DNA of 64,000 nt, from assembly GCA_951406725.2 (NCBI GenBank), contig OX597839.1, positions 22,444,001 through 22,508,000 on the forward strand, written 5' to 3'. Positions 47,992 through 48,512 of this stretch are shown in pieces. Source of the DNA: Octopus vulgaris. Lineage: Eukaryota. How positions within the stretch are numbered: the stretch's first letter is position 1; each line of letters starts with the position of its first letter. A program made the translations under genes and the position numbers. The notes under the pieces are model-generated. The model was not told the origin of the DNA. It worked only from the letters and a program-made list of their open reading frames with translations, and did not search any database.

Positions 47992-48235
47992 ATAACATAA
48001 GGGACTAAAGCCATCTGAATATGGCTAGGGACAGGGCAGGGTGGTGGGGGTGTTACTGTTGCATTTAGCCCCAGGCGAACATCAACGTCGCCAGATAGGC
48101 TTGACACCAGGACGCCGTGATGGTGTCAAGCCTATCTGGCGACGTTGATGTTCGCCTGGGAAATGCAACAGTAACACCCCCACCACCCTGCCCTGTCCCT
48201 AGCCATATTCAGATGGCTTTAGTCCCTTATGTTAT
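47992..48235. repeat. Near-perfect hairpin, ~115-bp stem, 11-nt loop
   Basis: Arms 47992-48109 and 48121-48235 differ only by a 3-nt indel as far as I can read. Confidence 0.95.
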
Positions 48236-48418: not shown

Positions 48419-48512
48419 CTTGTCCTTATCATTTGTGAGAGCGGATGGTGAACTGACCGAGTCATGAGGAAAGTGCGGTTCACAGTATAATTGACCATCC
48501 ATGGTGTGTTTC
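48419..48512 (-). CDS. RAP1GAP: Rap1GAP-family gene, exon with LIM-like C-terminal motif (xKHTMDGQLYCEPHFPHDSVSSPSALTNDKDK)
   Basis: Acceptor ttgttgtttgtttcag and donor AAG|gtaatt; 94 nt, phase 2 to phase 0, open frame. Joins the GoLoco exon in frame as NDKDK-MFELLERMQ, parallel to human QNTDL-FEMIEKMQ (recalled). Confidence 0.7.

Follow-up and report, generated by a model that had tools for sequence, protein, structure and literature searches.

The 94-nt exon at positions 48512-48419 (minus strand) of the window, that is, the 64,000-nt stretch of Octopus vulgaris DNA analyzed here (G000:C26:22444001-22508000), completes a LIM domain that the octopus Rap1GAP gene divides over three exons, and is shared by isoforms with and without the whole domain. 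This exon, hereafter exon C, encodes the last zinc knuckle and a linker, and carries ligands 7 and 8 (C-x2-H) of the eight-ligand LIM. The other pieces, exon A and microexon B, lie outside the window, as do the alternative splice partners of exon C. An earlier note, made from the letters of the window, had read the exon's DGQLYCEPHF as the last knuckle of a LIM and proposed a longer isoform with this domain at the N-terminus; its observation is confirmed and its interpretation is supported. We have hardly any doubt about the exon structure, the two splice forms, the eight ligands, the intact Asn-thumb motif and the conservation across molluscs and Owenia.

Exon C is stop-free, is preceded by a pyrimidine tract and CAG, is followed by GTAATT, and is entered in phase 2 and left in phase 0. 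A six-frame scan of the 654 kb surrounding the gene finds the knuckle pattern [DNE]GxxY/FCxx[HCD] once, at exon C. By itself the exon gives no Pfam match, as expected of one-third of a domain. Contigs of four runs from four studies were used for the splice evidence; that these runs are RNA is a guess, none of the 24 runs listed being recorded as RNA, and their contigs behave as spliced, covering exon C and not its introns. In all four runs, exon C joins the exon of GoLoco motif 1 (33370-33296, minus; 75 nt, phase 0/0; 30.0 bits against a Pfam cut-off of 25.1) in frame, as had been claimed, and the join was confirmed against the genomic sequence. Downstream on the same minus strand follow a Ser/Asn-rich linker exon that separates GoLoco motif 1 from motif 2 (28872-28678), the exon of GoLoco motif 2 (12104-12009; 96 nt, phase 0/0, D-Q-R intact; 41.1 bits), a 54-nt linker exon (10553-10500), an exon leading into the Rap-GAP dimerization domain (6180-6028) and the dimerization-domain exon itself (4928-4825). 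The remaining Rap_GAP exons are outside the window, from 22443521 to 22410521 of the contig (minus), and the gene as a whole spans more than 640 kb.

The other LIM exons had been sought in vain at 48.5-64 kb of the window, and were thought to lie further upstream or to have been lost. They are indeed absent from that interval and are not lost. A genome-wide Pfam LIM search returned 83 matches at E<=10. Among them is exon A (22972586-22972304, minus; 283 nt, ligands 1-5), which covers LIM positions 1-31 and lies 480 kb upstream of exon C on the same strand. Exons A and C together miss ligand 6, which prompted a search for a middle exon with a profile built without cephalopods. Among 553 candidates, microexon B (22889875-22889843, minus; 33 nt, phase 2/2, strong splice sites), 397 kb upstream of exon C, ranked first at 113.1 bits, the next scoring 88.4. 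Direct splicing of A to C as the source of a whole LIM was rejected, given the missing ligand and a score of 69.8 bits against 113.1. Both A and B end in phase 2, which is the donor phase that had been predicted for the upstream LIM exon(s). The introns are long (82,428 nt between A and B, 397,330 nt between B and C); inspection by eye of ORFs of at least 150 codons revealed no clear nested gene in the 480-kb span. A further internal coding exon (~23053677-23053411, minus) ends in a phase-1 donor, compatible with splicing to exon A. Named protein records of Octopus vulgaris fit the locus exon for exon.

Exon C is joined to microexon B in three of the four runs, the exon side of this join counting 26 letters, short of the 31-letter bar of the join tool. 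More generally, its upstream joins reach 26-28 exon letters each because the contigs break at the branch point. Beyond microexon B, the contig end continues for four letters that are those of exon A rather than of the intron next to B; the A-B join is thus supported by four contig letters together with protein records. Three further upstream partners of exon C were found, in two, two and one of the four runs. Each of them maps once (67 loci compared), between B and C, with a Met-initiated open frame and a GT donor. These minus-strand exons end at 22865712, 22621845 and 22547104, and supply N-termini of 40, 11 and 62 residues, respectively, the last matching record P0009. Therefore, at least four upstream exons, counting microexon B, splice into exon C. 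No transcription starts were seen for the alternative exons; we consider it quite probable that they are first exons of separate promoters.

Record P0016 contains, above the Pfam cut-offs, one LIM (40.2 bits; cut-off 22.9), two GoLoco motifs, the Rap-GAP dimerization domain (PF21022, 108 bits) and Rap_GAP (PF02145, 209 bits), and matches the human structure 1srq with an E-value of 7.6e-115. It is the longer isoform that had been envisaged, and LIM-less isoforms exist beside it. The LIM consensus is C-x2-C-x16-23-H-x2-C-x2-C-x2-C-x16-21-C-x2-(C/H/D), and the spacing in P0016, C-x2-C-x16-H-x2-C-x2-C-x2-C-x19-C-x2-H, fits it. In Rap1GAP proteins, the GAP core switches Rap-GTP off and GoLoco motifs bind G-alpha i/o. 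The Asn-thumb helix KRHIGND aligns with K285, R286, G289 and N290 of human Rap1GAP, the residues and role of which are described in the available part of PMC2265111. With its predicted dimerization and catalytic domains, Asn-thumb and GoLoco motifs, the octopus protein can be placed in the Rap1GAP family.

The two GoLoco motifs differ from each other. GoLoco-1 reads N-Q-R in Octopus and Argonauta, and D-Q-R in most other molluscs and in Owenia, while GoLoco-2 keeps D-Q-R. The GoLoco consensus has an acidic residue where octopus GoLoco-1 has Asn, a point against the model preferred below; the two motifs may have diverged in G-alpha binding. Most records of Haliotis, scallops, the chiton and Biomphalaria also have the second motif, which is thus not specific to cephalopods. 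Further toward the C-terminus, there is a conserved coiled-coil-like stretch, the coiled-coil family matches of which are weak and under cut-off. The last 135 or so residues of P0016, encoded by two exons further downstream (22395754-22391962, minus), are absent from all six aligned homologs and are likely an annotation fusion.

None of the eight LIM ligands varies among the 12 proteins aligned, and the non-ligand LIM residues are strongly conserved. The Met before DGQLYC (window 48500-48502) is likewise invariant in all 12; it is also the first residue of records P0015, P0017, P0019, P0044, P0056, P0084 and P0247, and may serve a dual use as LIM residue and start codon. The AlphaFold model of a relative, P0035, has pLDDT values of 85-93 for residues 51-90 and 70-76 for residues 91-110, i.e. 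the last knuckle and beyond. A Foldseek search with this model returned four matches at E<=0.001, all of them LIM proteins, led by the MICAL1 LIM (rmsd 1.4 over 56 columns to 9ewy). The model of P0035 thus predicts a double zinc-finger fold for the Rap1GAP LIM.

As to kinship, the LIM had been called MICAL-type, a label that holds for the best match and not for the descent. The MICAL1 LIM (2co8, 8y6k, 9ewy) is indeed the closest solved one by sequence as well as by fold, with an alignment free of gaps before the last knuckle and 47.7 bits by phmmer against the PDB, the next family reaching 35.4. On a profile of the Rap1GAP LIMs, however, other LIM exons of the octopus genome outscore the octopus MICAL exon (33.4 and 30.0 vs 20.9 bits), and a tree of 50 LIMs (52 columns) neither supports nor excludes grouping with MICAL LIMs. 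MICAL is a separate gene in octopus, located on C15, and its LIM lacks the introns of exons A, B and C. Among the exons seen, inspected by eye, no intron is shared with the MICAL LIM or with other paralogs, so that exon shuffling from MICAL is not supported. The host protein also differs. Pfam finds no CH domain, bMERB coiled coil or monooxygenase in P0016, which places it outside the MICAL class. On their own profile, the Rap1GAP LIMs score 101-120 bits (107 and 101 for two held-out cephalopods), whereas 388 other LIM domains reach at most 49. The nearest solved LIMs are those of MICAL1, EPLIN, CRP and LIMD2, which are mostly cytoskeleton-linked; LMO4 ranks high too.

The architecture extends well beyond octopus, to other cephalopods, gastropods, bivalves, a chiton and an annelid. 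LIM, GoLoco and Rap-GAP are all called by Pfam in Octopus, Haliotis, Gigantopelta, Biomphalaria, Liolophura (a chiton) and Owenia (an annelid); in scallops and Babylonia, LIM and Rap-GAP are called and a GoLoco-like motif stays below the cut-off. The GoLoco count varies between one and two. In a cluster that includes Sepia records, four Logan proteins (P0005, P0030, P0034, P0036) have the same order as P0016, namely LIM, two GoLoco motifs and GAP, each read in a single frame from a contig 3.0-5.7 kb long. A search of the whole library with P0035 found Rap_GAP in 4 of the 150 best matches (Owenia, Tegillarca, Argonauta and Babylonia), all mollusc or annelid; this is a weak test outside Lophotrochozoa, since multi-LIM proteins fill the list and the representative of a cluster may happen to be a LIM-less isoform. 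Another match from that search, P0221, combines a RasGAP with two LIM domains in one protein. In the ESM Atlas, mollusc and arthropod Rap1GAP clusters list at most three families, so that their LIM content is not readable, and a LIM-GoLoco query gave leads under 0.9 only.

LIM-less forms are common too. In a set of 93 records, drawn from cluster lists of at most 15 entries and hence not a census, with a GAP domain required, fragments without one excluded and many of the records being predicted models, the full LIM is present in 35, the knuckle alone in 49, the knuckle together with the microexon in 7, and neither in 2. Records with and without the LIM occur side by side in six mollusc groups, Octopus sinensis has a full LIM in none of the five records listed, and both Owenia records have a whole LIM. 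The breaks occur at the same two junctions in all groups, and the octopus forms made with the three other upstream exons retain just the last knuckle. The final 12 residues of the alternative N-termini are net positive in 20 of 27 distinct cases, as against 597 of 1635 background 12-mers, with the qualification that the 27 include orthologous exons, and are thus not independent, and that the background is not an N-terminal control. In scallops and Tegillarca (P0055, P0057, P0074), the microexon is preceded by a common Cys-cluster N-terminus, WKCLCCW, possibly a lipid anchor or a set of substitute zinc ligands.

Based on these data, we propose that the choice of upstream exon sets the address of the GAP. 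The most distal splice route, A-B-C, gives a LIM-GoLoco-GoLoco-Rap-GAP protein, and the other upstream exons place short ends on an orphan knuckle, which probably does not bind zinc, to give LIM-less forms. The LIM would act as a docking module that brings the GAP to the actin cortex or adhesions, and the short, mostly basic alternative ends would bring it to membranes. Thus, inclusion of the LIM is likely to decide where in the cell the enzyme acts. Taken as a whole, this model of a split LIM, cortical docking and basic membrane-directed ends is the account we lean toward, with somewhat better than even confidence. Its central element, that the LIM is a cytoskeletal targeting module for a local lowering of Rap-driven adhesion, could with equal justice be accepted or doubted. 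More tentatively still, Rap1GAP might have gained the LIM in the lophotrochozoan stem, with the junction inside the domain becoming a plug-in point where the promoter in use determines whether the protein receives the LIM or one of several short ends, basic or Cys-bearing; such an address code, running from chitons to octopus, would direct G-alpha i/o-controlled Rap inactivation either to membranes or to the actin cytoskeleton, and neither flies nor vertebrates would have this link.

Force sensing would be a further conceivable role. In one screen, as far as the available text of the report goes (10.1101/2020.03.06.979245), all force-sensing LIM proteins had three or more tandem LIMs. P0016 has one LIM and no tandem, which sets it apart from that class, and direct force sensing by this single LIM is by analogy unlikely.

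A different role is suggested by the MICAL1 LIM, which, according to the part of PMC11557892 available, acts inside its own protein and not as an actin anchor, binding a coiled coil in autoinhibition. This counts against the docking model. The Rap1GAP LIM might similarly pack on its own C-terminal coiled coil or GAP core, keeping activity low until G-alpha or another input arrives. The sequence and fold match to MICAL1 speaks for such an internal regulator, as do the conserved coiled-coil-like stretch and the strong conservation of non-ligand LIM residues. On the other hand, the MICAL1 assembly, in the same part of that report, requires a CH domain and a linker helix, and Rap1GAP has no CH domain; kinship with MICAL lacks support from profile scores or tree; and LIM-less isoforms are frequent among the records. 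Complex prediction of the LIM against its own GAP core and C-terminal region, run without an alignment, scored 0.00 and was weighed neither way. We hold internal regulation to be improbable, and we think no better of the idea that the LIM, with promoter choice still the switch, is an adaptor to a non-cytoskeletal partner such as a nuclear factor, a membrane protein or a signaling scaffold. Proteins with LIM domains serve broadly as adaptors, to judge from the accessible portion of PMC3305314, and the wide separation of the Rap1GAP LIMs from the 388 others suggests a dedicated partner; yet the nearest solved LIMs, LMO4 excepted, are mostly those linked to the cytoskeleton, and Rap acts on adhesion.

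It might also be argued that annotation created the LIM form as a chimera, or that this form is a rare read-through from a separate upstream gene, with the knuckle in the main Rap1GAP a relic. The great length of the two introns would fit this, as would the 58 records without a full LIM against 35 with one, and the stand-alone LIM fragments that stop after exon A or B (P0001, P0003, P0194). However, exons A and B hold six of the eight ligands and can form no LIM alone, the splice phases of A, B and C match exactly, the B-C join recurs in three of four runs from separate studies, and the same fusion with invariant ligands is found from chiton to annelid. The chimera reading is thus largely refuted, and we give it next to no weight. 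Docking of the GAP through the LIM stays our preferred reading.

Relative to known systems, the LIM-bearing form is a variant of the Rap1GAP family; every module was known already and the surprise is limited. Human Rap1GAP1 (Rap1GAP1a/1b; 1srq, 3brw) likewise has the dimerization and catalytic domains, the KRHIGND helix and an N-terminal GoLoco, one in number as opposed to two in octopus. In the part of PMC12329598 available, its N-terminal splice variants also cut a motif, shift localization and set G-alpha-o state preference and compartment; they add 33 or 64 residues, and no LIM is reported there. The motif cut by isoform choice is the GoLoco in human Rap1GAP1 and the LIM in octopus. LIMK2a/LIMK2b offers a precedent for an isoform lacking half a LIM (PMC10000741, in the excerpt available), but LIMK2 is a kinase with two LIMs, whereas octopus Rap1GAP loses its sole LIM and has several N-termini to replace it. 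In the supplement tables of a nine-species LIM survey (PMC3305314), as far as available, LIM plus Rap_GAP occurs only in two Capsaspora proteins, GoLoco is paired with LIM in none, and no human or fly LIM protein has Rap_GAP. These two proteins, CAOG_00633 and CAOG_07046, have LIM and Rap_GAP in one chain, with one N-terminal LIM in CAOG_00633. By the tables' description, on which the comparison is based, they differ in having three DEP domains or five C-terminal LIMs and no GoLoco, and in belonging to a unicellular relative of animals.

A literature search covering few subscription journals found no paper that combines Rap1GAP, a LIM domain and GoLoco; among the papers listed with looser terms, none is on this protein, going by titles and the openings of abstracts, and the main text of PMC3141262, in the part available, leaves the LIM domain unmentioned. 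The architecture, visible in public protein records, thus appears undescribed in the literature. Rap governs adhesion and neuronal wiring, and the location of its GAP sets where Rap goes off. In a LIM-GoLoco-Rap-GAP protein, G-alpha i/o signaling would be tied to a cytoskeletal address within a single chain, a coupling of molluscs and annelids that is not seen in the usual model animals. Because N-termini are interchangeable on the split domain, the LIM and LIM-less isoforms amount to a clean natural experiment. It is also a matter of annotation, as some records split the LIM off as a separate gene.

Close to exon C, about 180 nt past its donor, lies a 244-bp near-perfect palindrome (window 47992-48235), with a predicted hairpin of -239.5 kcal/mol (z -30.6). 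It belongs to a dispersed foldback, MITE-like family with 1085 candidates, 40 of them scored, and copies 80-98% identical on many contigs. In the pre-mRNA it would form a long double-stranded RNA, a possible candidate substrate for editing.
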